Shown here piece by piece: positions 1 to 47,036 of a stretch of DNA of 64,000 nt (its first letter is position 1; each line of letters starts with the position of its first letter). The notes below the pieces were generated by a model. The model saw only the letters and a list, made by a program, of their open reading frames with translations, was not told the origin of the DNA and searched no databases. The translations under genes and the position numbers were made by a program. Location of the stretch: the NCBI RefSeq assembly GCF_013122565.1, contig NZ_CP053258.1; one strand, written 5' to 3'. The DNA comes from Escherichia coli (GTDB lineage Bacteria; Pseudomonadota; Gammaproteobacteria; Enterobacterales; Enterobacteriaceae).

Positions 1-1125
1 CCATTATTGCTGGATGAACTGCTCGATCCAAACACTCTCTACCAGCCGACGGCGACCGATGCCTACCGTGATGAACTGCGCCAGTATTTGCTGCGCGTGC
101 CGGAAGATGACGAAGAACAACAGCTTGAGGCGCTGCGTCAGTTCAAACAGGCGCAGCTGTTACGCATTGCGGCAGCGGATATCGCCGGTACGCTACCGGT
201 GATGAAAGTGAGCGATCACTTAACCTGGCTGGCGGAAGCTATGATAGATGCCGTCGTTCAGCAGGCGTGGGTTCAAATGGTGGCCCGCTACGGTAAGCCA
301 AATCACCTCAACGAACGTGAAGGGCGCGGTTTTGCGGTGGTCGGCTACGGCAAGCTGGGCGGCTGGGAGTTAGGCTACAGCTCCGATCTTGACCTGATCT
401 TCCTCCATGATTGTCCAATGGATGCGATGACTGACGGCGAGCGGGAAATCGATGGGCGACAGTTTTATCTGCGTCTGGCGCAACGCATTATGCATCTGTT
501 CAGTACGCGTACCTCTTCCGGCATTTTGTATGAAGTAGATGCTCGACTGCGTCCGTCCGGGGCGGCGGGAATGCTGGTGACATCCGCAGAAGCATTTGCC
601 GATTATCAGAAAAACGAGGCCTGGACGTGGGAACATCAGGCGCTGGTGCGTGCGCGTGTAGTGTACGGCGATCCGCAGCTCACCGCGCACTTTGACGCGG
701 TGCGTCGCGAGATTATGACGCTGCCGCGTGAAGGTAAAACTCTGCAAACGGAAGTGCGGGAAATGCGCGAGAAAATGCGCGCTCATCTCGGCAATAAACA
801 TCGCGATCGCTTTGATATCAAAGCCGATGAAGGCGGAATTACCGATATCGAATTTATTACCCAATATCTGGTGTTGCGCTACGCTCATGAAAAACCGAAG
901 TTAACGCGCTGGTCAGACAACGTGCGCATTCTGGAACTACTGGCGCAAAACGACATTATGGAAGAGCAGGAAGCGATGGCGCTGACCCGTGCTTACACGA
1001 CGCTGCGCGATGAACTTCATCATCTTGCATTACAGGAATTGCCGGGCCATGTGTCGGAGGATTGCTTCACCGCAGAGCGTGAACTGGTGCGGGCAAGCTG
1101 GCAGAAGTGGCTGGTGGAAGAATGA
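1..1125 (+). CDS. glnE: Glutamine synthetase adenylyltransferase GlnE, C-terminal part; 5' end lies outside the window
   Basis: Open frame from position 1 to a stop at 1125; translation matches the GlnE nucleotidyltransferase C-terminal domain as remembered; followed directly by hldE as in E. coli. Confidence 0.9.
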
Positions 1126-1172
1126 AGTATGGTATTATCGCGCGCAAATTTTGAATCTCTCAGGAGACAGGA

Positions 1173-2606
1173 ATGAAAGTAACGCTGCCAGAGTTTGAAC
1201 GTGCAGGAGTGATGGTGGTTGGTGATGTGATGCTGGATCGTTATTGGTACGGTCCCACCAGCCGTATCTCGCCGGAAGCGCCGGTGCCCGTGGTTAAAGT
1301 GAATACCATCGAAGAACGTCCGGGCGGCGCGGCTAACGTGGCGATGAACATCGCTTCTCTCGGTGCTAATGCACGCCTGGTCGGGTTGACGGGCATTGAC
1401 GATGCAGCGCGTGCGCTGAGTAAATCTCTGGCCGACGTCAACGTCAAATGCGACTTCGTTTCTGTACCGACGCATCCGACCATCACCAAATTACGGGTAC
1501 TTTCCCGCAACCAACAGCTGATCCGTCTGGATTTTGAAGAAGGTTTCGAAGGTGTTGATCCGCAGCCGCTGCACGAGCGGATTAATCAGACGCTGAGTTC
1601 GATTGGCGCGCTGGTGCTTTCTGACTACGCCAAAGGTGCGCTGGCAAGCGTACAGCAGATGATCCAACTGGCGCGTAAAGCGGGCGTTCCGGTGCTGATT
1701 GATCCAAAAGGTACCGATTTTGAGCGCTACCGCGGCGCTACGCTGTTAACGCCGAATCTCTCGGAATTTGAAGCTGTTGTCGGTAAATGTAAGACCGAAG
1801 AAGAGATTGTTGAGCGCGGCATGAAACTGATTGCCGATTACGAACTCTCGGCTCTGTTAGTGACCCGTTCCGAACAGGGTATGTCGCTGCTTCAACCGGG
1901 TAAAGCGCCGCTGCATATGCCAACCCAGGCGCAGGAAGTGTATGACGTTACCGGCGCGGGCGACACGGTGATTGGCGTCCTGGCGGCAACGCTGGCAGCG
2001 GGTAATTCGCTGGAAGAAGCCTGCTTCTTTGCCAATGCGGCGGCAGGCGTGGTGGTCGGCAAACTGGGAACCTCCACGGTTTCGCCGATCGAGCTGGAAA
2101 ATGCTGTACGTGGACGTGCAGATACCGGCTTTGGCGTGATGACCGAAGAGGAACTGAAGCTGGCTGTAGCGGCAGCGCGTAAACGCGGTGAAAAAGTGGT
2201 GATGACCAATGGCGTCTTTGACATCCTGCACGCCGGGCACGTCTCTTATCTGGCAAATGCCCGTAAACTGGGTGACCGTTTGATTGTCGCCGTCAACAGC
2301 GATGCTTCCACCAAACGGCTGAAAGGGGATTCCCGCCCGGTAAACCCACTCGAACAGCGTATGATTGTGCTGGGCGCACTGGAAGCGGTCGACTGGGTAG
2401 TGTCGTTTGAAGAGGACACACCGCAGCGCTTGATCGCCGGGATCCTGCCAGACCTGCTGGTGAAAGGCGGCGATTATAAACCAGAAGAGATTGCCGGGAG
2501 TAAAGAAGTCTGGGCCAACGGCGGCGAAGTGTTGGTGCTCAACTTTGAAGACGGTTGCTCAACCACTAATATTATCAAGAAGATCCAACAGGATAAAAAA
2601 GGCTAA
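1173..2606 (+). CDS. hldE: Bifunctional D-glycero-beta-D-manno-heptose-7-phosphate kinase / heptose-1-phosphate adenylyltransferase
   Basis: 477-aa ORF; N-terminal ribokinase-like domain with GAGD motif, C-terminal cytidylyltransferase-like domain; ribosome-binding site GGAGA upstream. Confidence 0.95.
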
Positions 2607-2619
2607 CCGGAAAGCGGTT
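2593..2619 (-). terminator. Putative minus-strand intrinsic terminator (hairpin AACCG/CGGTT followed by a U-run) overlapping the hldE stop; candidate ibsD mRNA terminator
   Basis: Read on the minus strand: gaaccgctttccggtt then agccTTTTTT. Confidence 0.35.
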
Positions 2620-2686
2620 CACAGATCTCGCTTCGTAGCAGGCTGGCCTATTGACGCTGTTGTTTTTTCAACCTAAAGTAAAGGAA

Positions 2687-2834
2687 CAAGGGTAAGGGAG
2701 GATTTCTCCCCCCTCTGATGAGTTGTTAGTAAGTCGGGAAACTTAACAGTAACAACACAACCAGTATGATGACGAGCTTCATCATAACCCTTTCCTTCTA
2801 TAAGGCCCCTTCCTCGGGAGGGGCTTTCCCGTTT
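2687..2834 (+). ncRNA. sibD: Sib-type antisense sRNA (antitoxin of ibsD); ends approximate
   Basis: Sigma70-like promoter TTGACG (2651-2656), 17-bp spacer, TAAAGT (2674-2679); hairpin 2805-2824 followed by a weak T-tract; fully antisense to the 19-aa ibs ORF. Confidence 0.6.
2726..2785 (-). CDS. ibsD: Type I toxin Ibs family, 19-aa hydrophobic peptide MMKLVIILVVLLLLSFPTY
   Basis: Hand translation of the minus strand gives ATG ATG AAG CTC GTC ATC ATA CTG GTT GTG TTG TTA CTG TTA AGT TTC CCG ACT TAC TAA; AGGAAAGGG ribosome-binding site upstream; missing from the supplied ORF track because it is shorter than the length cutoff. Confidence 0.8.
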   Translation of the reverse strand: MMKLVIILVVLLLLSFPTY

Positions 2835-2976
2835 CAGCCCCTTGCTGACTCCCCGATTGTTGATGAGCGCCGGACCCCGCGCAACGCTTTCCCTGATGCA
2901 GTTTTCTCTTCCCCGAGTCGACTCGCAAAATGCTGCAACATCCTGATCATTTGCACTTTTTAGCGGAACGCAGATA

Positions 2977-3005
2977 TAAAAAATCCCCGGCTTTTTGGGC
3001 CAGGG
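2977..3005 (-). terminator. Minus-strand intrinsic terminator (CCCUGGC/GCCGGGG stem with G-U wobble, then U6), copy within repeat unit 1, downstream of ibsE
   Basis: Same motif as the terminator after yqiK. Confidence 0.45.
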
Positions 3006-3061
3006 ATATGTGTTAATGAAACCTTCTTGACGCTGATTTTTTTTCAACCTAAAGTAAAGGA

Positions 3062-3210
3062 ACAAGGGTAAGGGAGGATTTCTCCCCCCTCTGATTGGCT
3101 GTTAATAAGCTGCGAAACTTACGAGTAACAACACAATCAGTATGATGACGAGCTTCATCATAACCCTTTCCTTATACAAGGCCCCTTCTTCGGGAGGGGC
3201 TTTCCCGTTT
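3062..3210 (+). ncRNA. sibE: Sib-type antisense sRNA (antitoxin of ibsE); ends approximate
   Basis: Promoter TTGACG (3027-3032), 17-bp spacer, TAAAGT (3050-3055); hairpin 3181-3200 plus T-tract; antisense to ibsE. Confidence 0.6.
3102..3161 (-). CDS. ibsE: Type I toxin Ibs family, 19-aa peptide MMKLVIILIVLLLVSFAAY
   Basis: Hand translation of the minus strand gives ATG ATG AAG CTC GTC ATC ATA CTG ATT GTG TTG TTA CTC GTA AGT TTC GCA GCT TAT TAA. Confidence 0.8.
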   Translation of the reverse strand: MMKLVIILIVLLLVSFAAY

Positions 3211-3353
3211 CAGCCCCTTGCTGACTCCCCGATTGTTGATGAGCGCCGGACCCCGCGCAACGCTTTCCCTGAGGTAGTTTTGCCTTCCCCGAGCGGTCAC
3301 GCAAAATGCTGCAACAGCCCGATCATTTGCACTTTTTATCGGAACGCAGATAT

Positions 3354-3381
3354 AAAAAATCCCCGGCTTTTTGGGCCAGGG
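3354..3381 (-). terminator. Intrinsic terminator downstream of yqiK (minus strand)
   Basis: Minus-strand hairpin ccctggcccaaaaagccgggg followed by auuuuuu, 19 nt after the yqiK stop. Confidence 0.6.
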
Positions 3382-3399
3382 ACGTTCATAGCTGAAAAT

Positions 3400-5061
3400 T
3401 TATTCTACGTTTTCGGCGACGGGAGTTGTTGAGGTTAAGGGTGAAGTCAATGCCGCCAGTGAGCCGCCTGAAACGCCAATTTCATTGAGCAAGGAGTCAA
3501 TCAGCGGTGCCTGTGTGCGGTAAGAGAGAGCGGCTGATAATGCTTGTTCCGCCAGGTTTCCGCCCCCCACATTACCCGTGTTTGCATCACCCGCAGCGCT
3601 GCCACGATTCAGACCATCGACCTGAATAATCTTGATACCGTCAATAGATTTCATCGGCTCAACGGATTTTTCTATTACCGCAGGTAGCGCCTGCAACAAG
3701 GCCAGTTTGAATTTAAGGCTGGTTTGTTCATCAGAAAGTACGTTGATAGCATCGTTCAGCGCACGTTGTGCTTCTGCTTCCGCCAGACCCTTTTTACGTG
3801 TAGCTTCGGCTAACTCAACGATAGCCGCCGCCTGCATCTCTGCGGCTTCTTTTTCTGCTTTCGCCCGCACGGTCAGTTCAACCGCTTTGGTTTCTGCATC
3901 CTGCGCGGCAGCGATTAGGGCAACTTGTTTAGCACGATCGGCTTCGGCAGTCTGGCGAGTGGTTTCTACGTTTTGTTGGGCGCTTACCGCTTCTGCAAGT
4001 GCGAGATTAGCACGCGCTTCTGCCTGGGACTGTTGTTCCGATTTGGCGGCAATAGCGATCGATTTCGTCTGGTTAGCGATTTCGGTGACCTGCTGCTGTT
4101 CGATCTCTTTAATGCGAACTTCACGTTCAGCTTCAACCTTTCTTGAGCGGACGGCCTGTTCGCGGTCGATTTCTGTTTCCTGAATCTGTCGTTCAGCCAG
4201 AATTCGTGTCTGCTCTGCTTCACGACGACGTTCAGCTTCAAAAGCCGCAATACGTGCATTCTGTTCGGCAGTACGGGTTTTAACCTGCTGCTCCTGCTCA
4301 AGCGTCATAAACGCTTCTTGCTGTTCAATCTCCAGCTTGCGCGATAGCGCATCGCGATTTTTTTCACGCACCGCAACTTCTACATCCTGTTCAACTTCGT
4401 TACGTTCGCGGCGACGGCGCTCTGTTTCCTGAGTCAGTTTGGTTAAACCTTCGGCGTCAAAGGCATTGTTCGGATTGAAATGTTCTTTCGAGGTCTGGTT
4501 AAAGTTGGTAAGTGAAACGCTCTCCAGTTCCAGACCGTTTTTCGACAGGTCTTCTGCCACTGTATTTTGCACCCCCTGCACGAAGTTCTCGCGGGTATCC
4601 TGTAACTCATGCATGGTCATTTGCGCAGCTGTTGCACGGAGGGCATCGACAAATTTATCTTCAACCAACATACGTAAGTCTTCAGGCGACAGGGTGCGTT
4701 GCCCCAGCGTCTGGGCAGCGGTGGCAATCCCTTCTACTGAAGGTTTTACCCGCACAAAGAAAGCGACTACTACATCGACGCGCATACGATCTTTCGTAAT
4801 CAGGCTATCAATAGTTGAGCGGCTGACTTCCAGCTTCAGAGTATTCATATTGATGGGGATTATTTCATGAAAGATCGGCATCACGATTGCGCCACCGCTC
4901 ATTACCACTTTTTGCCCCCCTAAGCCGGTACGGACAAATGCTTGCTCTGCCGAAGCGCGACGATAGAGCCTGGCGAAAATAATTCCAATAATAAACAGAA
5001 TGCATACGGCAATAATCGCGGTAAACATCCAGGAGGGCACAGAATTAGCAATATCATCCAT
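3400..5061 (-). CDS. yqiK: Flotillin-like SPFH/band-7 membrane protein
   Basis: 553-aa ORF; N-terminal transmembrane segment, SPFH domain, long Ala/Glu/Gln-rich coiled-coil region. Confidence 0.9.
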   Translation of the reverse strand: MDDIANSVPSWMFTAIIAVCILFIIGIIFARLYRRASAEQAFVRTGLGGQKVVMSGGAIVMPIFHEIIPINMNTLKLEVSRSTIDSLITKDRMRVDVVVAFFVRVKPSVEGIATAAQTLGQRTLSPEDLRMLVEDKFVDALRATAAQMTMHELQDTRENFVQGVQNTVAEDLSKNGLELESVSLTNFNQTSKEHFNPNNAFDAEGLTKLTQETERRRRERNEVEQDVEVAVREKNRDALSRKLEIEQQEAFMTLEQEQQVKTRTAEQNARIAAFEAERRREAEQTRILAERQIQETEIDREQAVRSRKVEAEREVRIKEIEQQQVTEIANQTKSIAIAAKSEQQSQAEARANLALAEAVSAQQNVETTRQTAEADRAKQVALIAAAQDAETKAVELTVRAKAEKEAAEMQAAAIVELAEATRKKGLAEAEAQRALNDAINVLSDEQTSLKFKLALLQALPAVIEKSVEPMKSIDGIKIIQVDGLNRGSAAGDANTGNVGGGNLAEQALSAALSYRTQAPLIDSLLNEIGVSGGSLAALTSPLTSTTPVAENVE

Positions 5062-5087
5062 TATTAAATTTCCTTTTGATTAATAAA

Positions 5088-5717
5088 TTACAATATTTGG
5101 GGCCAGGGATTGTTTTCCGCCAAATATCGAGTTGCAGAAAGTCGGCAAATAATTAACACTTTGTCTCCTTTAGTGAAAATTTTTCCTTCTTCAGGCTCCA
5201 GTAGTAAATAATGTATTTGGCCAAATTGATCGGTGAGTTTTCCTTCGCAGGGATTACCTGAAGTGGCTTGATGACCGGTAATTAACGCCATGCTACCAAT
5301 ATATTCTTCTTCTGTAATAGCTGAACTATGATCGCGTGGAATCCAGGGCGCAACTATTTTACCGGTATAATGCACCGCAATAATCGTAAATAGTAAACTG
5401 ACAGGAACCACAAACAGGTTCGAGAGTGGTGATTGCCAGACCATGATGCAGGTATGCTGCAACAGGATGCCAATAAGACCAAAAAAACCAGCCAGTAAGC
5501 AAAGAACGACGAGAGCTGGCAATCTTCCGATATTGAGATAATGAAGTGCCTGGCTAATATGACCTGTGGTTATGGAATCATAATGGTCAAGATGTGCATC
5601 AAGTGCACCGGAGAGCATGTGACCGCAGATAAGCGCAAAAATTTCTAAAAGGCCGATCAACAGTACAAAGGAAATAGCGAAAAGATAAGGGGTGTTATAG
5701 TCGGCGAATAAAATCAT
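5088..5717 (-). CDS. yqiJ: NfeD-like inner membrane protein, partner of YqiK
   Basis: 209-aa polytopic hydrophobic ORF immediately upstream of yqiK on the same strand. Confidence 0.85.
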
Positions 5718-5985
5718 ATGTCACTCCAATGTCCATTTAGTGACGCAATATTTACTTTGGGATAGTTTCCTTGCTTACATTTATCTTTGTTAATAATAAC
5801 ACATGTTAGAGAAGTTCTGGAAGAAAAAGTCTTTTAATATGGTTTTTTATTTTTCACTAAAAAGTGTGATCGGGGACAATATATTTACGCACGTTATGTT
5901 TAAAGGCACTACACTGATTGGGGAATACTGAAATCAGAAAAAGCATATGGCCTTAAAAGGTATGCGATAACCGGAGGATGTGCTT

Positions 5986-6186
5986 ATGGATCATAGTCTT
6001 AATTCTTTAAATAACTTCGATTTCCTGGCGCGTAGTTTTGCCAGAATGCACGCAGAAGGTCGCCCGGTCGATATTCTGGCCGTTACTGGTAACATGGATG
6101 AAGAACATAGAACCTGGTTTTGCGCACGTTATGCCTGGTATTGCCAACAGATGATGCAAACCAGAGAACTTGAATTAGAACACTGA
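5986..6186 (+). CDS. glgS: Glycogen synthesis / surface-composition regulator GlgS (66 aa)
   Basis: Translation [66 protein letters not shown]; long AT-rich upstream region. Confidence 0.9.
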
Positions 6187-6190
6187 TATT

Positions 6191-6213
6191 ACGGGCCGTC
6201 TGGCCCGTTTTTG
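6191..6213. terminator. Terminator hairpin (CGGGCC gtct GGCCCG + T-run) in the convergent glgS/ubiK junction
   Basis: Perfect 6-bp GC stem followed by TTTTT; sits between the stop codons of convergent genes. Confidence 0.6.
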
Positions 6214-6220
6214 TGTTGCT

Positions 6221-6520
6221 TTATTCTGCTTTATCAATAGGCGGGATAGCCGGAGGAGATTGAAGATCTGCTACCGAATTATTGCGCGCTTCCAGTTCAC
6301 TGATGCGTTGCTCCAGTAACGCCAGTTTCTCACGAGTCCGTAACAGGACTTGCGTTTGGACGTCGAACTCTTCACGGCTTACAAGGTCGAGGCGCGTCAG
6401 CTGCGCTTGTAGGGTTTGGCGGATTTTTTTCTCCACATCTTCCCCGAACTCCCTGATTCCTTTAGGCATTGATTCGTGAACCTGGCGAGCGATTTGCTCA
6501 ATTTTTTTCGGGTCAATCAT
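6221..6520 (-). CDS. ubiK: Ubiquinone biosynthesis accessory factor UbiK (YqiC, BMFP family)
   Basis: ORF 6221-6580; start placed at internal Met ([13 protein letters not shown]...) to give ~99 aa; coiled-coil protein. Confidence 0.8.
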
Positions 6521-6606
6521 TGTAGTTTCCCTGTACTGATAGGTGTTGAGTGCCATTGTAGTGCGATAAGGGTAAGTCATAAACCAGAATTATGTGAAGC
6601 TATGCG

Positions 6607-6635
6607 TTGCTGCCGCTAATCATTAGCGTTATAGT
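6607..6635 (+). promoter_or_regulatory. Putative ribB promoter (-35 TTGCTG, 17-bp spacer, -10 TATAGT)
   Basis: Hexamers with canonical spacing just upstream of the riboswitch aptamer. Confidence 0.5.
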
Positions 6636-6644
6636 GAATCCGCT

Positions 6645-6795
6645 TATTCTCAGGGCGGGGCGAAATTCCCCACCGGCGGTAAATCAACTTGGTTGAAAGC
6701 CCGCGAGCGCTTTGAGTGCGAACTCAAAGGACAGCAGATCCGGTGTAATTCCGGGGCCGACGGTTAGAGTCCGGATGGGAGAGAGTAACGATTCT
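6645..6795 (+). promoter_or_regulatory. FMN riboswitch (RFN element) in the ribB leader; boundaries approximate
   Basis: Conserved RFN core: GGGCGGGGCGAAATTCCCCACCGGCGGTAAA...CCGGGGCCGACGGTTAGAGTCCGGATGGGAGAG upstream of ribB. Confidence 0.85.
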
Positions 6796-6893
6796 GTCGG
6801 GCATGGACCCGCTCACGTTATTTTGGCTATATGCCGCCACTCCTAAGACTGCCCTGATTCTGGTAACCATAATTTTAGTGAGGTTTTTTTACC

Positions 6894-7547
6894 ATGAATC
6901 AGACGCTACTTTCCTCTTTTGGTACGCCTTTCGAACGTGTTGAAAATGCACTGGCTGCGCTGCGTGAAGGACGCGGTGTAATGGTGCTTGATGATGAAGA
7001 CCGTGAAAACGAAGGTGATATGATCTTCCCGGCAGAAACCATGACTGTTGAGCAGATGGCGCTGACCATTCGCCACGGTAGCGGTATTGTTTGCCTGTGC
7101 ATTACTGAAGATCGCCGTAAACAACTTGATCTGCCAATGATGGTAGAAAATAACACCAGCGCCTATGGCACCGGTTTTACCGTGACCATTGAAGCGGCTG
7201 AAGGTGTGACTACCGGTGTTTCTGCCGCTGACCGTATTACGACCGTTCGCGCAGCGATTGCCGATGGCGCAAAACCTTCTGATCTGAATCGCCCTGGCCA
7301 CGTTTTCCCACTTCGCGCGCAGGCAGGTGGTGTACTGACGCGTGGCGGTCATACTGAAGCGACTATTGATCTGATGACGCTGGCAGGCTTTAAACCGGCT
7401 GGTGTGCTGTGTGAGCTGACTAATGACGATGGCACGATGGCGCGTGCACCAGAGTGCATTGAGTTTGCCAATAAACACAATATGGCGCTCGTGACTATTG
7501 AAGACCTGGTGGCATACCGTCAGGCACATGAGCGTAAAGCCAGCTGA
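6894..7547 (+). CDS. ribB: 3,4-dihydroxy-2-butanone 4-phosphate synthase
   Basis: 217-aa ORF matching RibB as remembered ([17 protein letters not shown]). Confidence 0.95.
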
Positions 7548-7580
7548 AAACCGCTGCTTAATTTACTGCCTTAATCAAGA

Positions 7581-7614
7581 AACCGAAGTTGTAGCAGGCT
7601 TCGGTTTTTATTTT
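7581..7614 (+). terminator. Intrinsic terminator after ribB
   Basis: Stem AACCGAAG / CTTCGGTT followed by TTTTTATTTT. Confidence 0.7.
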
Positions 7615-7808
7615 GCCCTGCTATGCAAGATGTTAATTCCGCTTCTCTTTCTATGAGAAAATTTCATTAATATCAGGCATTCTTTTTCATTATGATCAAA
7701 ATCATATAATTGTTCCGTTATTATGCGACCATATGAATATATCCGAAAAAGGATATGTGAAATTTATGCGCTAAATGTTTAGTATTGTTAAATATTAAGG
7801 GTAAAAGG

Positions 7809-7979
7809 ATGTTTATCGCCTGGTACTGGATTGTATTGATTGCTCTGGTTGTGGTGGGTTATTTCCTGCATTTGAAACGTTATTGTCGGGCGTTTCGCCA
7901 GGACAGAGACGCACTGCTTGAAGCGCGGAACAAATACTTAAACAGTACGAGAGAAGAGACAGCTGAAAAGGTAGAATAA
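7809..7979 (+). CDS. Small hypothetical membrane protein (~56 aa): one transmembrane helix plus a charged tail
   Basis: ATG with AAGGG ribosome-binding site; translation MFIAWYWIVLIALVVVGYFLHLKRYCRAFRQDRDALLEARNKYLNSTREETAEKVE; AT-rich upstream region. Confidence 0.4.
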   Translation: MFIAWYWIVLIALVVVGYFLHLKRYCRAFRQDRDALLEARNKYLNSTREETAEKVE

Positions 7980-8036
7980 GGCTTTCGTGAAGCTGGCAGA
8001 AGTTGTCCATGCGCTGGACAACTTCTGATGTTGTTT

Positions 8037-8810
8037 TTAACCAATTCCCGCCGTTTGTAGTAGCACTAAACTGAATCCCATCACTGACATTCCACATAGT
8101 ACGCCATAGCTGGGGTTATTATTAGGGTCAATCTCTTTGGCGAGCGGCATTAATTCATCAACCGAGAGCGCCACCATAATTCCTGCAACCGCCGCCATGA
8201 TTGCCGCCATGACCACCGGGGAAATCATGCTACCGAGGATTAACCACGCCAGCACACCACCAAGAATTTCTGCCAATCCAGAAATCCCCGCCCACAGAAT
8301 TGCCGTGCGTTTAGAACCCGTTGCTGCATAAACCGGGCCTGCAACCGCCAGACCTTCAGGAATATTGTGCAACGCGACGGCCAGTGCGATGCCAAATCCC
8401 AGCTCCAGGTTGCTGCTCGCCGTGACAAAGGTGGCAATCCCTTCCGGGAAGTTATGCAGACTGATGCCGAGAGTGAGCAGAATGGCTGTGCGCTTGATCG
8501 ATTTTGGCAACGGCTGCACCGATTTTTGCATTAAATCCTGCGGATGCGCATGTGGCAACATGCGGTCCAGGCCAAAATAGCCAAGCAGACCGAAGATAAA
8601 CATTCCATAACCCAACACAGGCGACATTCCTTCAGCGGCTAGTGCGGCAGGAAGCATTTCCATTAATGAGATGAGCAACATGATCCCCGCCGCAAATCCT
8701 AGCGAAAACGCCAGTAAGCGGTTCGAGGGTTTTTGCCCGAGAACGCCGAGAAACGCGCCAATAAACGTGGCTGCCCCCGCCAGTATGGTCAGAATGAGAG
8801 GTACTGACAT
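8037..8810 (-). CDS. zupT: Zinc transporter ZupT (ZIP family)
   Basis: ORF 8037-8852; start placed at [12 protein letters not shown] (257 aa); ZIP-family HNxPEG motifs. Confidence 0.9.
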
Positions 8811-8925
8811 CGACAACTCCTTATAAATCTTCACCTTCAGGCAGATTGTCAAAATAACTGATGATCATCATCATTGTTATCCGGGTTCTTACTCCGCCGA
8901 ACAAGCGTATTGTGAGGATATCAAA

Positions 8926-9741
8926 ATGACACCTTTAGTTAAGGATATCATCATGTCTTCAACACGTATGCCAGCATTGTTTTTAGGTCACGGTAGTCCG
9001 ATGAACGTGCTGGAAGATAATTTGTATACCCGCAGCTGGCAGAAGTTGGGGATGACATTGCCACGCCCGCAAGCGATTGTGGTGGTTTCGGCTCACTGGT
9101 TTACCCGTGGAACAGGAGTGACCGCGATGGAGACGCCGCCCACGATTCATGACTTTGGTGGCTTCCCGCAGGCGCTGTACGATACGCATTATCCTGCTCC
9201 GGGTTCGCCTGCGCTGGCACAGCGTCTGGTTGAGCTGTTAGCGCCGATCCCGGTGACGCTGGATAAAGAAGCCTGGGGCTTTGACCACGGCTCGTGGGGC
9301 GTGCTGATTAAGATGTATCCTGACGCTGATATCCCGATGGTGCAGTTGAGTATCGACAGTAGCAAACCTGCCGCCTGGCATTTCGAAATGGGGCGCAAAC
9401 TGACAGCGCTGCGAGATGAAGGAATAATGTTGGTCGCCAGCGGTAACGTGGTGCATAACCTGCGCACAGTGAAGTGGCACGGTGATAGTTCACCGTATCC
9501 GTGGGCGACGTCGTTTAATGAGTATGTGAAAGCGAATCTGACGTGGCAAGGGCCAGTGGAACAACATCCTCTGGTGAATTACCTCGACCATGAAGGTGGC
9601 GCGTTATCGAACCCAACGCCAGAGCATTATCTGCCGTTGTTGTATGTGTTAGGTGCGTGGGATGGGCAGGAGCCAATTACCATTCCGGTTGAGGGTATAG
9701 AAATGGGCAGCCTGAGTATGCTGTCGGTGCAGGTAGGTTAA
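8926..9741 (+). CDS. ygiD: Extradiol ring-cleavage dioxygenase class III (4,5-DOPA dioxygenase-like)
   Basis: 271-aa ORF; position between zupT and ygiC; exact start uncertain. Confidence 0.8.
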   Translation: MTPLVKDIIMSSTRMPALFLGHGSPMNVLEDNLYTRSWQKLGMTLPRPQAIVVVSAHWFTRGTGVTAMETPPTIHDFGGFPQALYDTHYPAPGSPALAQRLVELLAPIPVTLDKEAWGFDHGSWGVLIKMYPDADIPMVQLSIDSSKPAAWHFEMGRKLTALRDEGIMLVASGNVVHNLRTVKWHGDSSPYPWATSFNEYVKANLTWQGPVEQHPLVNYLDHEGGALSNPTPEHYLPLLYVLGAWDGQEPITIPVEGIEMGSLSMLSVQVG

Positions 9742-29824: not shown

Positions 29825-30307
29825 ATGACAAACCTGACACTGGATGTAAACATTATCGATTTCCCATCAATCCCTGTGGCGATGTTGCCGCACCGCTGTA
29901 GCCCTGAATTGCTCAACTACAGCGTGGCGAAATTTATCATGTGGCGTAAAGAGACGGGGCTTTCTCCTGTTGACCAAAGCCAGACTTTTGGCGTCGCCTG
30001 GGACGACCCTGCCACCACCGCACCGGAAGCGTTTCGCTTTGATATCTGCGGCAGCGTTAGCGAACCGATTCCCGATAATCGTTATGGTGTGAGTAATGGT
30101 GAACTTACCGGTGGACGTTATGCCGTGGCCCGCCACGTTGGCGAGCTGGACGATATTTCACACACGATATGGTGCATCATTCGCCACTGGCTGCCTGCAA
30201 GCGGCGAGAAAATGCGTAAAGCACCGATTCTGTTTCACTACACCAATCTTGCCGAAGGGGTGACAGAGCAGCGACTGGAAACGGATGTTTATGTGCCGTT
30301 GGCGTGA
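29825..30307 (+). CDS. ygiV: GyrI-like small-molecule-binding protein YgiV
   Basis: 160-aa ORF following ygiW. Confidence 0.8.
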   Translation: MTNLTLDVNIIDFPSIPVAMLPHRCSPELLNYSVAKFIMWRKETGLSPVDQSQTFGVAWDDPATTAPEAFRFDICGSVSEPIPDNRYGVSNGELTGGRYAVARHVGELDDISHTIWCIIRHWLPASGEKMRKAPILFHYTNLAEGVTEQRLETDVYVPLA

Positions 30308-30437
30308 TGCCTGACTCCAGCTTCCCTTATAAATTCCTGCTTCAAACTGGCGCTACTAATGCGCCACTTTCTTATATGGTCAATCACTTTCCTTAAAGAA
30401 TACGTTTTGTGTGGTCACTATCTCCGTACATCTAACT

Positions 30438-30481
30438 AACCTTTTAGGTGCTTTTTCATTGCTGTAATTAACCTTTTAGGT
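30438..30481. promoter_or_regulatory. Two AACCTTTTAGGT palindromes (30438-30449 and 30470-30481): MqsA operator sites in the mqsRA promoter
   Basis: Two perfect ACCT-n4-AGGT palindromes about 20 bp apart, 30-70 bp upstream of mqsR. Confidence 0.75.
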
Positions 30482-30511
30482 TATAACTAAAGTAACAGGG
30501 AGGCGGGGGTT

Positions 30512-30808
30512 ATGGAAAAACGCACACCACATACACGTTTGAGTCAGGTTAAAAAACTTGTCAATGCCGGGCAAGTTCGTACAACACGTAGTGCACTGTT
30601 AAATGCAGATGAGTTAGGTTTGGATTTTGATGGTATGTGTAATGTTATCATTGGATTATCAGAGAACGACTTTTATAAAAGCATGACCACCTACTCTGAT
30701 CATACTATCTGGCAGGATGTTTACAGACCCAGGCTTGTTACAGGCCAGGTTTATCTTAAAATTACGGTAATTCATGACGTACTGATCGTCTCATTTAAGG
30801 AGAAGTAA
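30512..30808 (+). CDS. mqsR: Type II toxin MqsR (mRNA interferase)
   Basis: 98-aa ORF MEKRTPHTRLSQVKKLV...; immediately precedes mqsA. Confidence 0.9.
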   Translation: MEKRTPHTRLSQVKKLVNAGQVRTTRSALLNADELGLDFDGMCNVIIGLSENDFYKSMTTYSDHTIWQDVYRPRLVTGQVYLKITVIHDVLIVSFKEK

Positions 30809-30809
30809 T

Positions 30810-31205
30810 ATGAAATGTCCGGTTTGCCACCAGGGAGAAATGGTTTCTGGCATTAAAGATATTCCATACACCTTCCGTGGACGAAAAACAGTATTGAAAG
30901 GTATCCACGGTTTATATTGTGTCCATTGCGAAGAGAGCATCATGAATAAAGAAGAGTCAGATGCTTTCATGGCGCAAGTAAAGGCATTTCGGGCTTCGGT
31001 GAATGCCGAAACAGTGGCACCTGAATTTATAGTGAAGGTTCGAAAAAAGCTCTCTCTTACACAAAAAGAGGCAAGCGAAATTTTTGGGGGAGGTGTAAAT
31101 GCGTTTTCGCGTTACGAAAAAGGCAATGCCCAACCTCATCCTTCCACAATCAAACTTTTACGTGTTCTGGATAAGCATCCAGAACTATTAAATGAAATCC
31201 GTTAA
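30810..31205 (+). CDS. mqsA: Antitoxin MqsA (zinc-ribbon + HTH-XRE)
   Basis: 131-aa ORF; N-terminal CxxC...CxxC zinc ribbon; C-terminal HTH; starts 2 nt after the mqsR stop. Confidence 0.9.
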   Translation: MKCPVCHQGEMVSGIKDIPYTFRGRKTVLKGIHGLYCVHCEESIMNKEESDAFMAQVKAFRASVNAETVAPEFIVKVRKKLSLTQKEASEIFGGGVNAFSRYEKGNAQPHPSTIKLLRVLDKHPELLNEIR

Positions 31206-31337
31206 TTAATGGAAAAGCGGGGGCAACTCGCTTTTTTCTTTACCGGAGTGTGAGCCAAATCACTCGTGATAAGTTTGAGCAAACAATGCCACAGGCGTAT
31301 TGTTGTCGGGCTTATAATTTCTCCGGTAAGGAATACC

Positions 31338-32945
31338 ATGTATACGCGAAATTTATTATGGCTGGTCAGCCTGGTAAGTGCGGCTCCTCTCTACGCTGCT
31401 GACGTTCCCGCCAATACACCGCTCGCCCCGCAACAAGTCTTTCGTTACAACAATCATAGCGACCCAGGTACGCTCGACCCGCAAAAGGTGGAGGAGAATA
31501 CTGCCGCGCAGATTGTGCTGGATCTGTTTGAAGGTCTGGTATGGATGGACGGTGAAGGCCAGGTGCAGCCCGCTCAGGCTGAACGCTGGGAGATACTGGA
31601 CGGCGGCAGGCGCTATATTTTCCATCTGCGTAGCGGTTTGCAGTGGTCCGACGGTCAGCCTCTGACGGCAGAGGATTTTGTCCTCGGCTGGCAGCGCGCG
31701 GTTGACCCGAAAACGGCAAGCCCTTTTGCTGGCTATCTGGCACAGGCGCACATTAACAATGCCGCGGCTATTGTTGCGGGTAAAGCAGATGTTACATCGC
31801 TGGGTGTCAAAGCGACGGATGATCGTACTCTTGAGGTTACGCTTGAGCAGCCGGTTCCTTGGTTCACGACGATGCTCGCCTGGCCGACGCTGTTCCCGGT
31901 TCCTCATCATGTCATCGCTAAACATGGCGATAGCTGGAGTAAGCCAGAGAACATGGTTTACAACGGTGCCTTTGTGCTTGATCAGTGGGTAGTTAACGAA
32001 AAGATTACTGCACGCAAAAATCCAAAGTACCGCGATGCGCAACATACAGTATTGCAACAGGTTGAGTATCTGGCGCTGGATAATTCGGTCACCGGCTATA
32101 ACCGCTATCGCGCGGGAGAGGTCGATCTCACCTGGGTTCCGGCGCAGCAAATTCCCGCCATTGAAAAATCACTGCCTGGCGAGCTACGAATTATCCCGCG
32201 GCTGAACAGCGAATATTACAACTTTAACCTTGAGGAACCGCCATTTAACGATGTGCGGGTGCGTCGGGCGCTATATCTTACGGTTGATCGACAGCTTATT
32301 GCGCAAAAGGTACTGGGGTTGAGGACGCCCGCAACCACGCTGACGCCGCCAGAGGTAAAAGGCTTTAGCGCGACGACGTTCGATGAACTGCAAAAGCCAA
32401 TGAGTGAGCGCGTCGCGATGGCAAAAGCCTTGCTGAAACAGGCGGGATACGACGCCTCTCATCCGCTACGCTTTGAGCTTTTCTACAACAAGTACGATCT
32501 GCATGAAAAGACCGCGATAGCGTTGTCTTCCGAATGGAAAAAATGGCTGGGTGCACAGGTGACGCTGCGCACAATGGAGTGGAAAACTTATCTTGATGCC
32601 CGACGAGCCGGTAATTTCATGCTGTCTCGGCAGTCGTGGGATGCGACGTATAATGATGCTTCCAGCTTCCTGAACACGCTCAAAAGCGATAGTGAAGAAA
32701 ACGTCGGTCACTGGAAAAATGCGCAGTATGACGCCTTACTAAACCAGGCCACGCAGATCACTGATGCGACAAAGCGTAATGCGTTGTATCAGCAGGCAGA
32801 AGTGATCATCAACCAACAGGCACCGCTGATTCCTATCTACTATCAGCCGTTAATCAAACTGCTTAAACCCTACGTTGGCGGTTTTCCGCTGCATAATCCC
32901 CAGGATTATGTCTACAGCAAAGAGTTGTATATCAAGGCACATTGA
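31338..32945 (+). CDS. ygiS: Periplasmic solute-binding protein, family 5 (oligopeptide/deoxycholate-binding-like)
   Basis: ORF 31266-32945; start placed at MYTRNLLWLVSLVSAAPLYA signal peptide (535 aa). Confidence 0.85.
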   Translation: MYTRNLLWLVSLVSAAPLYAADVPANTPLAPQQVFRYNNHSDPGTLDPQKVEENTAAQIVLDLFEGLVWMDGEGQVQPAQAERWEILDGGRRYIFHLRSGLQWSDGQPLTAEDFVLGWQRAVDPKTASPFAGYLAQAHINNAAAIVAGKADVTSLGVKATDDRTLEVTLEQPVPWFTTMLAWPTLFPVPHHVIAKHGDSWSKPENMVYNGAFVLDQWVVNEKITARKNPKYRDAQHTVLQQVEYLALDNSVTGYNRYRAGEVDLTWVPAQQIPAIEKSLPGELRIIPRLNSEYYNFNLEEPPFNDVRVRRALYLTVDRQLIAQKVLGLRTPATTLTPPEVKGFSATTFDELQKPMSERVAMAKALLKQAGYDASHPLRFELFYNKYDLHEKTAIALSSEWKKWLGAQVTLRTMEWKTYLDARRAGNFMLSRQSWDATYNDASSFLNTLKSDSEENVGHWKNAQYDALLNQATQITDATKRNALYQQAEVIINQQAPLIPIYYQPLIKLLKPYVGGFPLHNPQDYVYSKELYIKAH

Positions 32946-33082
32946 TGCCTTTATCGCCGTCGGAGCACGTCCGGCGGCGCTATTCACGCTGATCTCCTGT
33001 GACTCGACGCGGCAGATAATGTAGTATCTCCGGCAATATTGCCCCTTTGAAGGCTGGCGAATAAGTTGAGGAATCAGAATTA

Positions 33083-35341
33083 ATGAGCGATATGGCAGAG
33101 CGCCTTGCGCTACATGAATTTACGGAAAACGCCTACTTAAACTACTCCATGTACGTGATCATGGACCGTGCGTTGCCGTTTATTGGTGATGGTCTGAAAC
33201 CTGTTCAGCGCCGCATTGTGTATGCGATGTCTGAACTGGGCCTGAATGCCAGCGCCAAATTTAAAAAATCGGCCCGTACCGTCGGTGACGTACTGGGTAA
33301 ATACCATCCGCACGGCGATAGCGCCTGTTATGAAGCGATGGTCCTGATGGCGCAGCCGTTCTCTTACCGTTATCCGCTGGTTGATGGTCAGGGGAACTGG
33401 GGCGCGCCGGACGATCCGAAATCGTTCGCGGCAATGCGTTACACCGAATCCCGGTTGTCGAAATATTCCGAGCTGCTATTGAGCGAGTTGGGGCAGGGGA
33501 CGGCTGACTGGGTGCCAAACTTCGACGGCACTTTGCAGGAGCCGAAAATGCTACCTGCCCGTCTGCCAAACATTTTGCTTAACGGCACCACCGGTATTGC
33601 CGTCGGCATGGCGACCGATATTCCACCGCATAACCTGCGTGAAGTGGCTCAGGCGGCAATCGCATTAATCGACCAGCCGAAAACCACGCTCGATCAGCTG
33701 CTGGATATCGTGCAGGGGCCGGATTATCCGACTGAAGCGGAAATTATCACTTCGCGCGCCGAGATCCGTAAAATCTACGAGAACGGACGTGGTTCAGTGC
33801 GTATGCGCGCGGTGTGGAAGAAAGAAGATGGCGCGGTGGTTATCAGCGCATTGCCGCATCAGGTTTCAGGTGCGCGCGTACTGGAGCAAATTGCTGCGCA
33901 AATGCGCAACAAAAAGCTGCCGATGGTTGACGATCTGCGCGATGAATCTGACCACGAGAACCCGACCCGTCTGGTGATTGTGCCGCGTTCCAACCGCGTG
34001 GATATGGATCAGGTGATGAACCACCTCTTCGCTACCACCGATCTGGAAAAGAGCTATCGCATTAACCTCAATATGATCGGTCTGGATGGTCGTCCGGCGG
34101 TGAAAAACCTGCTGGAAATTCTCTCCGAATGGCTGGTGTTCCGCCGCGATACCGTGCGCCGCCGACTGAACTATCATCTGGAGAAAGTCCTCAAGCGCCT
34201 GCATATCCTCGAAGGTTTGCTGGTGGCGTTTCTCAATATCGACGAAGTGATTGAGATCATTCGTAATGAAGATGAACCGAAACCGGCGCTGATGTCGCGG
34301 TTTGGCCTTACGGAAACCCAGGCGGAAGCGATCCTCGAACTGAAACTGCGTCATCTCGCCAAACTGGAAGAGATGAAGATTCGCGGTGAGCAGAGTGAGC
34401 TGGAAAAAGAGCGCGACCAGTTGCAGGGCATTTTGGCTTCCGAGCGTAAAATGAATAACCTGCTGAAGAAAGAACTGCAGGCAGACGCGCAAGCCTACGG
34501 TGACGATCGTCGTTCGCCGTTGCAGGAACGCGAAGAAGCGAAAGCGATGAGCGAGCACGACATGCTGCCGTCTGAACCTGTCACCATTGTGCTGTCGCAG
34601 ATGGGCTGGGTACGCAGCGCTAAAGGCCATGATATCGACGCGCCGGGCCTGAATTATAAAGCGGGTGATAGCTTCAAAGCGGCGGTGAAAGGTAAGAGCA
34701 ACCAACCGGTAGTGTTTGTTGATTCCACCGGTCGTAGCTATGCCATTGACCCGATTACGCTGCCGTCGGCGCGTGGTCAGGGCGAACCGCTCACCGGCAA
34801 ATTAACGTTGCCGCCTGGGGCGACCGTTGACCATATGCTGATGGAAAGCGACGATCAGAAACTGCTGATGGCTTCCGATGCGGGTTACGGTTTCGTCTGC
34901 ACCTTTAACGATCTGGTGGCGCGTAACCGTGCAGGTAAGGCTTTGATCACCTTACCGGAAAATGCCCATGTTATGCCGCCGGTGGTGATTGAAGATGCTT
35001 CCGATATGCTGCTGGCAATCACTCAGGCAGGCCGTATGTTGATGTTCCCGGTAAGTGATCTGCCGCAGCTGTCGAAGGGCAAAGGCAACAAGATTATCAA
35101 CATTCCATCGGCAGAAGCCGCGCGTGGCGAGGATGGTCTGGCGCAACTGTACGTTCTGCCGCCGCAAAGCACGCTGACCATTCATGTTGGGAAACGCAAA
35201 ATTAAACTGCGTCCGGAAGAGCTACAGAAAGTCACTGGCGAACGTGGACGCCGCGGTACGTTGATGCGCGGTTTGCAGCGTATCGATCGTGTTGAGATCG
35301 ACTCTCCTCGCCGTGCCAGCAGCGGTGATAGCGAAGAGTAA
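33083..35341 (+). CDS. parC: DNA topoisomerase IV subunit A
   Basis: 752-aa ORF; GyrA-like N-terminus with active-site region AAMRYTE. Confidence 0.95.
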
Positions 35342-35574
35342 TATGCCGGGGCGGGCGCTGTTTCCTCCCGCTTGCAAGGAACGCCGGATGAAACGTTAAG
35401 TCGTCATCCGGCAGCGTATTCAACCCCCGGAAACGATAAAAATTCCCTTGAAACCGTTGTTTATTCATGCGTTGCGATTAACAATACGCTTTTCCAGAGA
35501 GCGGCTTTTAACAATGCCCTAACCTGATTTCAGGTGACGTACAATGCCAGTCTCTCAGACCTTCAGAGGGTGTT

Positions 35575-46932: not shown

Positions 46933-47036
46933 ACGTTCCTCCTTTATATGAACTCACCGGAGCAGGCTCCGGTGAGGTGTTGTGAACTTAAGTCTGGACG
47001 AAATGCCCGAAAACGAAAGTTTGAGGCGTAAAAAGC

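Follow-up and report, generated by a model that had tools for sequence, protein, structure and literature searches.

The window analysed here, a 64,000-nucleotide stretch of Escherichia coli DNA taken as a whole (contig NZ_CP053258.1), contains the flotillin-family gene pair yqiJ-yqiK beside two ibs/sib toxin-antitoxin units, which raises the question of whether their proximity reflects a shared function or the history of the locus. The best overall explanation, and very probably the correct one, is that a yqiJK operon and separate ibs/sib modules have come to lie next to each other through locus history rather than through a shared function.

Organization of the yqiJ-yqiK locus

The features of the locus are as follows:

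2651-3001, both strands: hldE-proximal ibs/sib unit, corresponding to sibE/ibsE of K-12
3027-3377, both strands: yqiK-proximal ibs/sib unit, corresponding to sibD/ibsD of K-12
3359-3383, minus strand: predicted terminator hairpin 3′ of yqiK, with a 9-bp stem, 7-nt loop and T6 tail
3400-5061, minus strand: yqiK, encoding a 553-amino acid flotillin-family SPFH protein (Pfam, composition, AlphaFold2 and RefSeq)
5062-5087, minus strand: yqiJ-yqiK spacer of 26 nt, with an AGGA ribosome-binding site and without a terminator
5088-5717, minus strand: yqiJ, encoding a 209-amino acid protein of the inner membrane, for which three membrane helices are predicted, followed by an OB-fold domain at the C-terminus
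5718-5979, between the divergent genes: AT-rich yqiJ/glgS control region (33.6% GC)

The open reading frame calls for the two protein-coding genes coincide exactly with the coordinates in a preliminary description of this DNA, and its gene identities and operon reading are borne out by Pfam, RefSeq (where yqiK is named a flotillin family protein and yqiJ an OB-fold-containing protein) and the K-12 gene order. In K-12 (b3050-b3051, sibD/ibsD and sibE/ibsE) the order and orientation of hldE, the two ibs/sib units, yqiK, yqiJ and glgS are as observed here, with DNA identities of 98.8% for yqiK and 98.1% for yqiJ, while the ibs/sib units have diverged further (93-95% identity). K-12 also differs in harboring the fimbrial yqiGHI genes beyond glgS, which is followed directly by ubiK and ribB in the window. 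Across positions 2400-6400 the best match among complete E. coli genomes reaches only 97.4% identity, and the hldE-ibs/sib-yqiK junction is recovered at ≥ 80% coverage in 5407/5426 complete E. coli genomes, with the yqiJK pair found in at least 5318. The yqiJ-yqiK pair is the chromosomal flotillin operon of Escherichia, and the K-12 annotation and literature already describe the two genes, how they are paired and their location next to sibD/sibE.

No minus-strand terminator-like site is found in the 5062-5087 spacer, and from its short length, its AGGA motif and this lack of a terminator we infer that yqiJ and yqiK are co-transcribed. A consensus promoter scan returned five sites, compared to 4.7 in shuffled sequences, none of them on the minus strand of the yqiJ/glgS region, where a candidate extended -10 element for yqiJ (TGtTATTAT; 5801-5793, minus strand) was read by eye. 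At the other end of the operon, the 3359-3383 hairpin, which bounds the ibs/sib repeat unit on its yqiK side, begins 16 nt past the yqiK stop codon (3400-3402), so that the operon can fairly be described as directly abutting the toxin-antitoxin repeats. Folded in context, the hairpin has a free energy of -21 kcal/mol (z -4.3), and a second minus-strand copy occurs at 2983-3007, in the hldE-proximal unit and ahead of the second ibs. Each of the twelve units aligned from sib-bearing loci has this hairpin after yqiK, with the T tract lost in one of them (Kosakonia L032), while species with zero sib copies lack it and carry a REP-like hairpin in its place. Its sequence features are those of an intrinsic terminator, placed between the yqiK stop and the promoter region of ibs, and the tandem duplication copied this yqiK terminator hairpin together with the ibs/sib unit. 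The possibility that the hairpin is a general part of ibs/sib units was rejected, as the K-12 ibsA, ibsB and ibsC units are homologous only from TTTGCGAG onward and lack it.

The toxin-antitoxin repeats named in the preliminary description are real, as evidenced by two plus-strand matches to the Rfam SIB_RNA model (2651-2800; Bitscore: 142.8 and 3027-3176; Bitscore: 150.8; gathering score: 56) and by antisense Ibs reading frames. The latter are 19-codon ORFs at 2726-2785 and 3102-3161 (minus strand), which encode MMKLVIILVVLLLLSFPTY and MMKLVIILIVLLLVSFAAY, respectively, so that each unit comprises a hydrophobic ORF of 18-19 codons wholly overlapped on the opposite strand; the hldE-proximal peptide is identical to RefSeq IbsE. 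The Sib RNA of the yqiK-proximal unit, whose ends were mapped from the K-12 annotation, lies at about 3061-3205 (plus strand), with a promoter at 3027-3055 (TTGACG-17-TAAAGT; plus strand) and a terminator hairpin near 3178-3204, while that of the hldE-proximal unit lies at about 2686-2829 (plus strand). The two units share 92% identity over 300 nt at a spacing of 376, and alignment of ibs reveals a conserved promoter-like block (TTGCGC-17-AACAAT). Ibs toxicity and its repression by the cognate Sib are known for the K-12 copies (PMC2943612; PMC9426594). The ibs/sib units are separate, self-contained type I toxin-antitoxin modules.

YqiK, YqiJ and their relationship to known SPFH systems

The YqiK protein combines the three features of the flotillin family, namely an SPFH domain (Band_7, PF01145; residues 39-192; Bitscore: 67.5, cut-off: 23.6; e-value: 2.1e-18), a Flot domain (PF15975; residues 406-530; e-value: 1.2e-40) following an Ala/Glu-rich helix, and an N-terminal membrane anchor. 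The anchor is located at about residues 10-33, where hydropathy windows with starts at residues 4-13 exceed 1.6 and peak at 2.98, and AlphaFold2 places an N-terminal helix at residues 10-38. The long Ala/Glu/Gln-rich stretch ascribed to YqiK is confirmed by the composition of residues 201-440 (19.6% Ala, 17.5% Glu and 10.8% Gln, together 47.9%, with zero proline) and by predicted helices at 203-351 and 366-471 (block-mean pLDDT mostly 70-87, falling at the helix ends), so that the helical region spans about residues 203-471. The AlphaFold2 model was built from a 24-sequence alignment and is poor as a whole, with a mean pLDDT of 58 and an unresolved SPFH domain. YqiK scores 87.1 bits against the NCBIfam FloT equivalog model (NF058507), below its cut-off of 700, and is thus related to FloT without being a FloT equivalog. 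Across proteobacterial classes YqiK retains 70-78% identity, compared to 32-37% for YqiJ, with a mean column identity for YqiK of 81%. Published yqiK deletion mutants show no clear phenotype and native YqiK-GFP is undetectable (PMC2636767, PMC10434171), with very low native expression reported (PMC10434171).

The partner protein, YqiJ, contains three hydrophobic segments and matches the Pfam models YqiJ_N (e-value: 1.5e-15) and YqiJ_OB (e-value: 1.7e-14). Its description as NfeD-like holds by fold and gene partnership, as the membrane-spanning N-terminal part is joined to a C-terminus with a five-stranded OB-fold β-barrel resembling the solved NfeD domains, and yqiJ is an operon partner of an SPFH gene; by sequence, in contrast, YqiJ is not a member of the Pfam NfeD family. 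The Pfam model of the NfeD C-terminal domain (PF01957) is not among the YqiJ matches even at e-values ≤ 10, with only YqiJ_N and YqiJ_OB being significant. Pfam and NCBIfam scans of YqiJ likewise did not detect the ClpP-like serine protease domain of the long NfeD forms, and at 209 amino acids YqiJ would be a short NfeD form. Published NMR shift data on the YqiJ C-terminus agree with an NfeD-type partner (PMC2636767).

Several characterized systems resemble this pair, including the QmcA-YbbJ, HflK/C and flotillin complexes, which form membrane-enclosing cages (PMC12478178, PMC13086221). E. coli QmcA-YbbJ (PDB 8z5g) likewise consists of a cytoplasm-facing SPFH protein and an NfeD-type operon partner, and its solved cage comprises 26 heterodimers (PMC13086221). 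The gene order is, however, reversed, with qmcA located upstream of ybbJ (PMC10434171), and QmcA is stomatin-like, lacking both the Flot domain and the approximately 270-residue helical region of YqiK. For the yuaF-floT (yuaG) pair of Bacillus subtilis, the YqiK score on the FloT model is that given above, and a phmmer search against the PDB revealed no sequence similarity between YqiJ and YuaF. Eukaryotic flotillin-1/2 and Staphylococcus aureus FloA-NfeD, which are oligomeric membrane scaffolds, share the Band_7 and Flot architecture with YqiK, and the S. aureus flotillin and its operon partner NfeD have been shown to stabilise unfolded membrane proteins (PMC11222466); in contrast to these systems, neither client proteins nor a stress phenotype have been described for YqiK. 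YqiK shows no significant similarity to the flotillin chains of solved structure (flotillin-2; profile e-value: 0.29). Neither YqiK nor YqiJ had a significant match in the PDB, whether the query was the single sequence or a profile, and homology to solved flotillin and NfeD chains can therefore not be claimed by sequence.

The QmcA-YbbJ complex serves as the template for the mechanism proposed for YqiJK. The N-terminal helix of YqiK would hold the protein in the inner membrane, leaving the remainder in the cytoplasm, and by analogy to the SPFH assemblies of known structure many copies may be expected to build a closed dome or cage, in which the SPFH domains would rest on the membrane while the long Ala/Glu-rich helices would form a wall fencing off a membrane patch. 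YqiJ, with its three membrane helices and cytoplasmic NfeD-type OB domain, would be a co-translated partner in cage binding or assembly, as YbbJ is for QmcA. The YqiK cage is purely an analogy, because the AlphaFold2 model of YqiK is poor.

Distribution of yqiJK and ibs/sib

The comparative sample comprised 36 loci from other species, found via exact peptide patterns, in all of which yqiJ lies directly upstream of yqiK, including those of Cupriavidus, Paraburkholderia and two alphaproteobacterial MAGs. By contrast, ibs/sib was restricted to the gap between hldE and yqiK in certain Enterobacteriaceae, with two, one, zero or decaying copies. Among the 36 loci, sib lies beside yqiK in eleven and as a decaying copy in one, and is absent from eight syntenic and fourteen non-syntenic loci, with the remaining two cut off and uninformative for sib. 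Two copies are present in the window and in L001, L003 and L021, and a single copy in L004, L005, L009, L010, L011, L028, L031, L033, L034 and Salmonella L042. In Kosakonia L032 a decaying copy (Bitscore: 64.7) with a broken ibs ORF lies beside intact yqiJK, while L006, L012, L013, L014, L015, L024, L029 and L035 carry no sib in an unchanged hldE...yqiK synteny. The possibility that blastn had missed diverged copies was rejected by a scan of 18 sib-negative or doubtful loci with the Rfam covariance model, which recovered only the decaying L032 copy. Copy number further varies within Citrobacter, with two genomes named C. youngae differing (one versus zero), and within E. coli, where about 9/40 evenly spaced records contain a single unit. 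The same-strand ibs unit beside yqiK is found in Escherichia, Salmonella, Citrobacter, Kluyvera, Phytobacter and Klebsiella spallanzanii, while K-12 sibA/B and sibC adjoin yegL/mdtA and fau/serA and have no SPFH neighbour.

A second, mobile version of the gene pair is found on pO113, an IncI-type conjugative plasmid, where, as in yqiJK, an OB-fold gene immediately precedes a flotillin gene, with the pair located between traC and type IVb pilus (pil) genes. Its products share 82% (YqiK) and 54% (YqiJ) identity with those of the chromosomal pair, and ibs/sib is absent. About 346 plasmid records, mostly of conjugative plasmids of E. coli and Shigella, match yqiK at 60-80% DNA identity, among which the YqiJ partner was inspected on pO113 only. 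Further 'plasmid' matches to yqiJK at 95-98% identity are to Mb-sized or core-gene-carrying records, likely mislabelled chromosomes, as is likely also the case for the 728-kb Salmonella 'plasmid 2', and these records were left out of the mobility evidence.

The co-occurrence of ibs/sib with yqiJK, put forward as a check in the preliminary description, is thus not observed in the eight syntenic and fourteen non-syntenic loci or in the plasmid pair. The link between yqiJK and Ibs that it had called intriguing fails on the sib-less syntenic loci and the three K-12 ibs/sib units located elsewhere, while, of its interpretation, it is the remark that the placement is probably coincidental that finds support.

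History or coupling of the adjacent genes

A single ibs/sib unit has very probably been present in the hldE-yqiK gap since before the divergence of Escherichia, Salmonella, Citrobacter, Kluyvera, Phytobacter and Klebsiella, and was later lost or decayed in several lineages and tandemly duplicated in Escherichia. An old, self-contained unit with such a history argues for the adjacency being a matter of locus history.

The presence of an ibs unit fixed at one site, on the yqiK strand, in at least six genera counts against a purely neutral history, which allows such a pattern but does not require it.

Coupling could be transcriptional, with a leaky yqiK hairpin permitting read-through into ibsD and then ibsE and so tying flotillin expression to toxin potential. 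The ibs and yqiK genes share a strand, with the closest ibs start codon only 239 nt from the end of yqiK, and the ibs unit starts with the yqiK-ending hairpin, which is conserved in every sib-bearing species. However, the 9-bp GC-rich stem and T6 tract have the form of an efficient intrinsic terminator, the retention of the hairpin in both copies fits insulation better than coupling, ibs has a conserved promoter-like block of its own, and the reported native expression of yqiK is very low (PMC10434171), all of which make read-through coupling very improbable. Such read-through would add toxin mRNA for the Sib RNAs to neutralise.

Coupling could also be functional, with a YqiJK assembly guarding the inner membrane against Ibs, or with the Ibs peptides as its clients or modulators, and selection keeping the genes together. 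The Ibs peptides depolarise the inner membrane (PMC9426594), the ibs unit occurs on the yqiK strand beside yqiK in six genera, and yqiJK directly follows a gene for the membrane-stress protein PspA/IM30 in Cupriavidus and two alphaproteobacterial MAGs, in agreement with a PSP survey. Against this, intact yqiJK occurs without sib in the eight loci of identical synteny, as well as in the fourteen non-syntenic loci and the plasmid pair, and beside a decaying ibs in Kosakonia; of the five ibs/sib units in K-12, three are far from any SPFH gene; and ibs neighbours are not reported for other E. coli SPFH operons. The literature searched on yqiJ/yqiK and ibs/sib does not connect them, and the most relevant Sib papers make no mention of yqiJ or yqiK. 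Even given the old same-strand adjacency, functional coupling is unlikely, and the specific proposal of a protective or client relationship seems very improbable. That coupling through either read-through or the buffering of Ibs damage by a YqiJK cage has kept ibs directly 3′ of yqiK and in the same orientation from before the Escherichia/Salmonella split is similarly very doubtful; if true, it would give the E. coli flotillin its first physiological role.

That the locus is instead an island of foreign DNA, acquired recently and largely silent, with yqiJK as a passenger without a role in its present host, is extremely improbable, since the GC content of yqiJ (41.9%; GC3: 37.6%) and of its upstream region (33.6%), well below that of hldE (55.4%), the paralogous pair on conjugative plasmids, the 70-78% identity of YqiK to beta- and alphaproteobacterial proteins, and the low expression and lack of a reported deletion phenotype are set against the occupation of one chromosomal site from Escherichia to Salmonella, Citrobacter and Klebsiella (and in almost all complete E. 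coli genomes, as counted above), the intactness of both ORFs everywhere and the very strong constraint on YqiK across classes.

The history of the locus rather than a common function thus remains the preferred explanation for the adjacency, and the yqiJK pair appears, from its gene content and distribution, to be a functional unit independent of ibs/sib. The discovery value of the locus is small, as it consists of an ordinary, already known gene pair and its neighbours. The useful outcome is negative and specific, in that the comparative test gives no support to a flotillin-Ibs link, while the linkage of yqiJK with PspA/IM30 in distant Proteobacteria points to membrane stress as the setting in which the missing YqiK phenotype may be found.

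The yqiJ-yqiK genes and the hairpin beyond yqiK

The interval 3400-5717, named in the preliminary description as a yqiJ-yqiK operon abutting toxin-antitoxin repeats, is the exact stop-to-start span of two minus-strand ORFs. The features of this region, followed by the further Rfam matches in the window, are:

2651-2800, plus strand: SIB_RNA match (Rfam, 142.8 bits)
2726-2785, antisense to the preceding match: hydrophobic ibs ORF, 19 codons
2983-3007, minus strand: hairpin with T6 tract, yqiK-side end of the hldE-proximal ibs/sib unit
3027-3176, plus strand: SIB_RNA match (Rfam, 150.8 bits)
3102-3161, antisense to the preceding match: hydrophobic ibs ORF, 19 codons
3359-3383, minus strand: hairpin with T6 tract, yqiK-side end of the yqiK-proximal ibs/sib unit
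3400-5061, minus strand: yqiK ORF, 553 aa
5088-5717, minus strand: yqiJ ORF, 209 aa
6642-6790: FMN riboswitch upstream of ribB
46971-47034: ES173 sRNA
52815-52885 and 63858-63934: two copies of naRNA4, a REP-derived nucleoid-associated RNA

YqiK contains a Pfam Band_7/SPFH domain (residues 39-192; E 2.1e-18) followed by Flot, the C-terminal domain of flotillins (residues 406-530; E 1.2e-40). YqiJ matches Pfam YqiJ_N and YqiJ_OB. Megablast with window positions 2400-6400 matched 5425 of 5426 complete E. coli genomes; the annotation beneath the match names yqiK a 'flotillin family protein' and yqiJ an 'OB-fold-containing protein', with hldE, two genes for Ibs toxins, glgS and ubiK as neighbours. 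The order in K-12 MG1655 is identical (yqiJ, b3050; yqiK, b3051; sibD/ibsD; sibE/ibsE; hldE), with DNA identities of 98.8% for yqiK and 98.1% for yqiJ. Domains, gene order and gene names agree with the original annotation of what is an already known locus. The repeats are equally real, consisting of two SIB_RNA matches (Rfam gathering score: 56), the only ones in the 64-kb window, each with its antisense 19-codon ORF. The long Ala/Glu/Gln-rich coiled coil attributed to YqiK is likewise evident, as residues 201-440 comprise 47.9% A+E+Q and no proline, and AlphaFold2 predicts helices at 203-351 and 366-471.

The two ibs/sib units form a direct tandem repeat with 376-nt spacing (92% identity over 300 nt, gap-free), and their similarity extends, by eye, to about 3001 and 3377. 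Both carry the same minus-strand hairpin at the yqiK-side end, and the copy at 3359-3383 (-21 kcal/mol in context, z -4.3, predicted fold) begins 16 nt beyond the yqiK stop codon, suggesting that the likeliest yqiJK terminator is the first element of the repeat unit itself. This hairpin is most plausibly a candidate terminator of yqiJK transcription. The 26-nt spacer between yqiJ and yqiK contains a ribosome-binding site, and no terminator was found within it. Transcription reading through from yqiK into ibs is improbable, given that the hairpin following yqiK resembles an efficient terminator and is duplicated ahead of the second ibs gene.

An alignment of the window with ten single-copy related loci places the hairpin immediately 3′ of yqiK in every case; these loci represent Escherichia, Citrobacter, Kluyvera, Phytobacter, Klebsiella spallanzanii, Kosakonia and one further enterobacterial isolate. 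Relatives without sib that retain hldE-yqiK synteny have a gap of only about 75-320 nt, which in most cases contains a REP-like GCCGGATG...CATCCGGC hairpin instead of the terminator-like one. The hairpin is also absent from the K-12 ibsA, ibsB and ibsC units, whose homology to the sibD/ibsD and sibE/ibsE units starts only at the TTTGCGAG block. The simplest reading of these alignments would be that the hairpin is a feature of this hldE-yqiK locus and was carried along in the tandem duplication of the unit; each ibs gene would thereby have acquired an upstream insulator.

Several features of the surrounding sequence were also observed. Across window positions 1-9000, identity to the best complete E. 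coli genome is just 97.4-97.9%, with encoded proteins 99-100% identical, while the best match to 30000-36000 reaches 99.3%; the left end was possibly introduced by recombination from a lineage missing among complete genomes. At the glgS-ubiK junction (6186-6221), ubiK and ribB come straight after glgS, as in strain MS 196-1, whereas in K-12 the yqiGHI fimbrial genes adjoin glgS, and their occurrence beside the operon is a presence/absence polymorphism. The mechanically called ubiK ORF (6221-6580, minus strand) encodes 119 aa, against 99 aa (300 nt) in RefSeq, where translation starts at an internal ATG. The 30000-36000 region holds parC, ygiS, plsC and the antitoxin gene mqsA (annotation under the best matches); as mqsA belongs to a type II system, this represents a second, unrelated toxin-antitoxin locus.

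Distribution of ibs/sib beside yqiJ-yqiK

A YqiK scan of the GTDB set, with a single genome for each species, yielded 36 loci, onto which the window proteins and sib sequences were mapped, with sib-negative loci rechecked using the Rfam covariance model. The loci include Hafnia, Serratia, Erwinia, Buttiauxella, Cupriavidus, Paraburkholderia and two alphaproteobacterial MAGs, and yqiJ is directly upstream of yqiK in 36/36. Where sib occurs beside the pair, it is confined to the hldE-yqiK gap.

Copies of sib beside yqiK in the window and related loci (L numbers)
Two copies: window, L001, L003 (Escherichia sp.), L021 (E. albertii)
One copy: L004, L005, L009, L010, L011, L028, L031, L033, L034
One decaying copy (64.7 bits, ibs ORF broken): L032 (Kosakonia)
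None, synteny unchanged: L006, L012, L013, L014, L015, L024, L029, L035
None, yqiJK in another context: 14 loci

Copy number varies even between two genomes named Citrobacter youngae (one copy in L004, none in L006). In Salmonella Senftenberg the same site holds a single unit (146.5 bits). Within E. coli, 5407/5426 genomes carry the hldE-yqiK junction with ibs/sib, and about 9 of 40 evenly spaced records have a single unit (725-bp span), a share of about one fifth that is a rough estimate from 40 records. In K. spallanzanii (L028, about 9050-9190) a ~105-nt insertion within the sib gene separates the ibs ribosome-binding site from its ATG; it is possibly a small repetitive element that interrupts the unit. 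The unit of Kosakonia sp. S29 (L032, 8819-8962) is decaying; its ibs frame no longer codes for a hydrophobic peptide and much of its upstream region is deleted, with the adjoining yqiJK intact.

A related gene pair is found on plasmids. yqiK has matches at 60-80% DNA identity in about 346 plasmid records, the majority of them conjugative plasmids of E. coli/Shigella. In pO113 (NC_007365.1, 4874-7215) a yqiJ-like OB-fold gene precedes the flotillin gene (proteins 54% and 82% identical to YqiJ and YqiK, respectively) between traC and type IVb pilus genes, a position hinting at a function in conjugation or in the assembly of pili; no sib is present beside it. A 728-kb Salmonella Senftenberg record labelled 'plasmid 2' (NZ_LN868944.1) instead carries the core genes glnE, hldE, ribB and ubiK in chromosomal synteny and, like several Mb-sized E. 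coli 'plasmid' records in PLSDB, is probably mislabelled chromosome.

The invariant pairing, the plasmid pair and the variable sib copies together indicate that the conserved, mobile unit is the yqiJ-yqiK pair. The ibs/sib units are locus-bound passengers, whose gains, duplications and losses leave yqiJK unchanged. The preliminary description had speculated on a link between the flotillin and the Ibs toxins, to be checked by co-occurrence. Such functional coupling could draw on the age of the same-strand yqiK-ibs adjacency, which extends from Escherichia to Salmonella and Klebsiella, on the depolarisation of the membrane by Ibs peptides (PMC9426594) and on the association of yqiJK with PspA genes in other bacteria. 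It is nevertheless very unlikely, as ibs/sib has been lost repeatedly with yqiJK untouched, sib being missing from eight syntenic and 14 other loci, and every transplanted pair, that of pO113 included, is without it. Furthermore, the three remaining K-12 units lie elsewhere, sibA/ibsA and sibB/ibsB in the yegL-mdtA interval and sibC/ibsC in the fau-serA interval, with no SPFH gene near any of them. The comparative test thus lends the proposed link no support.

YqiJ as a short NfeD partner and the putative YqiJ-YqiK assembly

YqiJ had been described as NfeD-like, which holds for its fold but not for its Pfam membership. The Pfam NfeD model is not among its matches even at E <= 10, and sequence and profile searches against the PDB returned nothing. 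An AlphaFold2 model built from 29 homologues (mean pLDDT 79; block means of 74-89 over the barrel, residues 141-200) shows a beta-barrel at the C-terminus in addition to three long membrane helices. NMR chemical shifts of the C-terminus led Hinderhofer et al. to the same NfeD-fold conclusion (PMC2636767), and Wessel et al. termed yqiJ 'NfeD-like' (PMC10434171). As modelled, YqiJ is an NfeD protein by fold, not by sequence family; it would act like a short NfeD partner, its formal Pfam membership being the separate YqiJ_OB family.

The solved SPFH assemblies, namely HflK/C, QmcA-YbbJ, flotillin-1/2 and prohibitin, are all closed cages round a membrane patch (PMC12478178). That of E. coli QmcA-YbbJ comprises 26 SPFH-NfeD heterodimers on the cytoplasmic face (PMC13086221; PDB 8z5g), and YqiK is likewise predicted to face the cytoplasm (PMC10434171). 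NfeD partners have been proposed to promote oligomerisation, and under stress conditions FloA-NfeD of S. aureus keeps unfolded membrane proteins stable (PMC11222466). Domain architecture, membrane segments, the 26-nt spacing and the invariant gene pairing are directly observed in yqiJ-yqiK and, by analogy with these systems, YqiK would build a closed membrane dome with a roughly 270-residue helical wall and a Flot cap, with YqiJ positioned at or under its rim. Between E. coli and the Beta-/Alphaproteobacteria, YqiK retains 70-78% identity, including the coiled-coil region (mean column identity 81%), against only 32-37% for YqiJ, an imbalance that agrees with an assembly having nearly all of its surface as interface. 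Within Escherichia, the protein alignments (A1, A3) give 88-89% identity for YqiJ and 97-98% for YqiK.

In published work, deletions lacked a clear phenotype and native YqiK-GFP was undetectable (PMC2636767, PMC10434171). The GC content of yqiJ (41.9%) and its upstream region (33.6%), relative to hldE (55%), would fit a foreign origin and a low level of expression, but a silent foreign island is highly improbable given the strong conservation of the pair and its fixed chromosomal site. In Cupriavidus and two alphaproteobacterial MAGs (L017, 4847-6200; L030, 4468-5704; L037, 5089-6309) a PspA/IM30-family gene lies directly upstream of yqiJ on the same strand, and a protein of 174-194 aa without a Pfam match also precedes yqiJ; a PSP survey likewise reported the PspA/IM30-yqiJ neighbourhood. 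This linkage and the low GC content are context clues that point to membrane stress. To a known locus, the co-duplicated terminator, the copy-number polymorphism, the plasmid paralogue, the PspA linkage and the unequal conservation of the two partners add modest further details.
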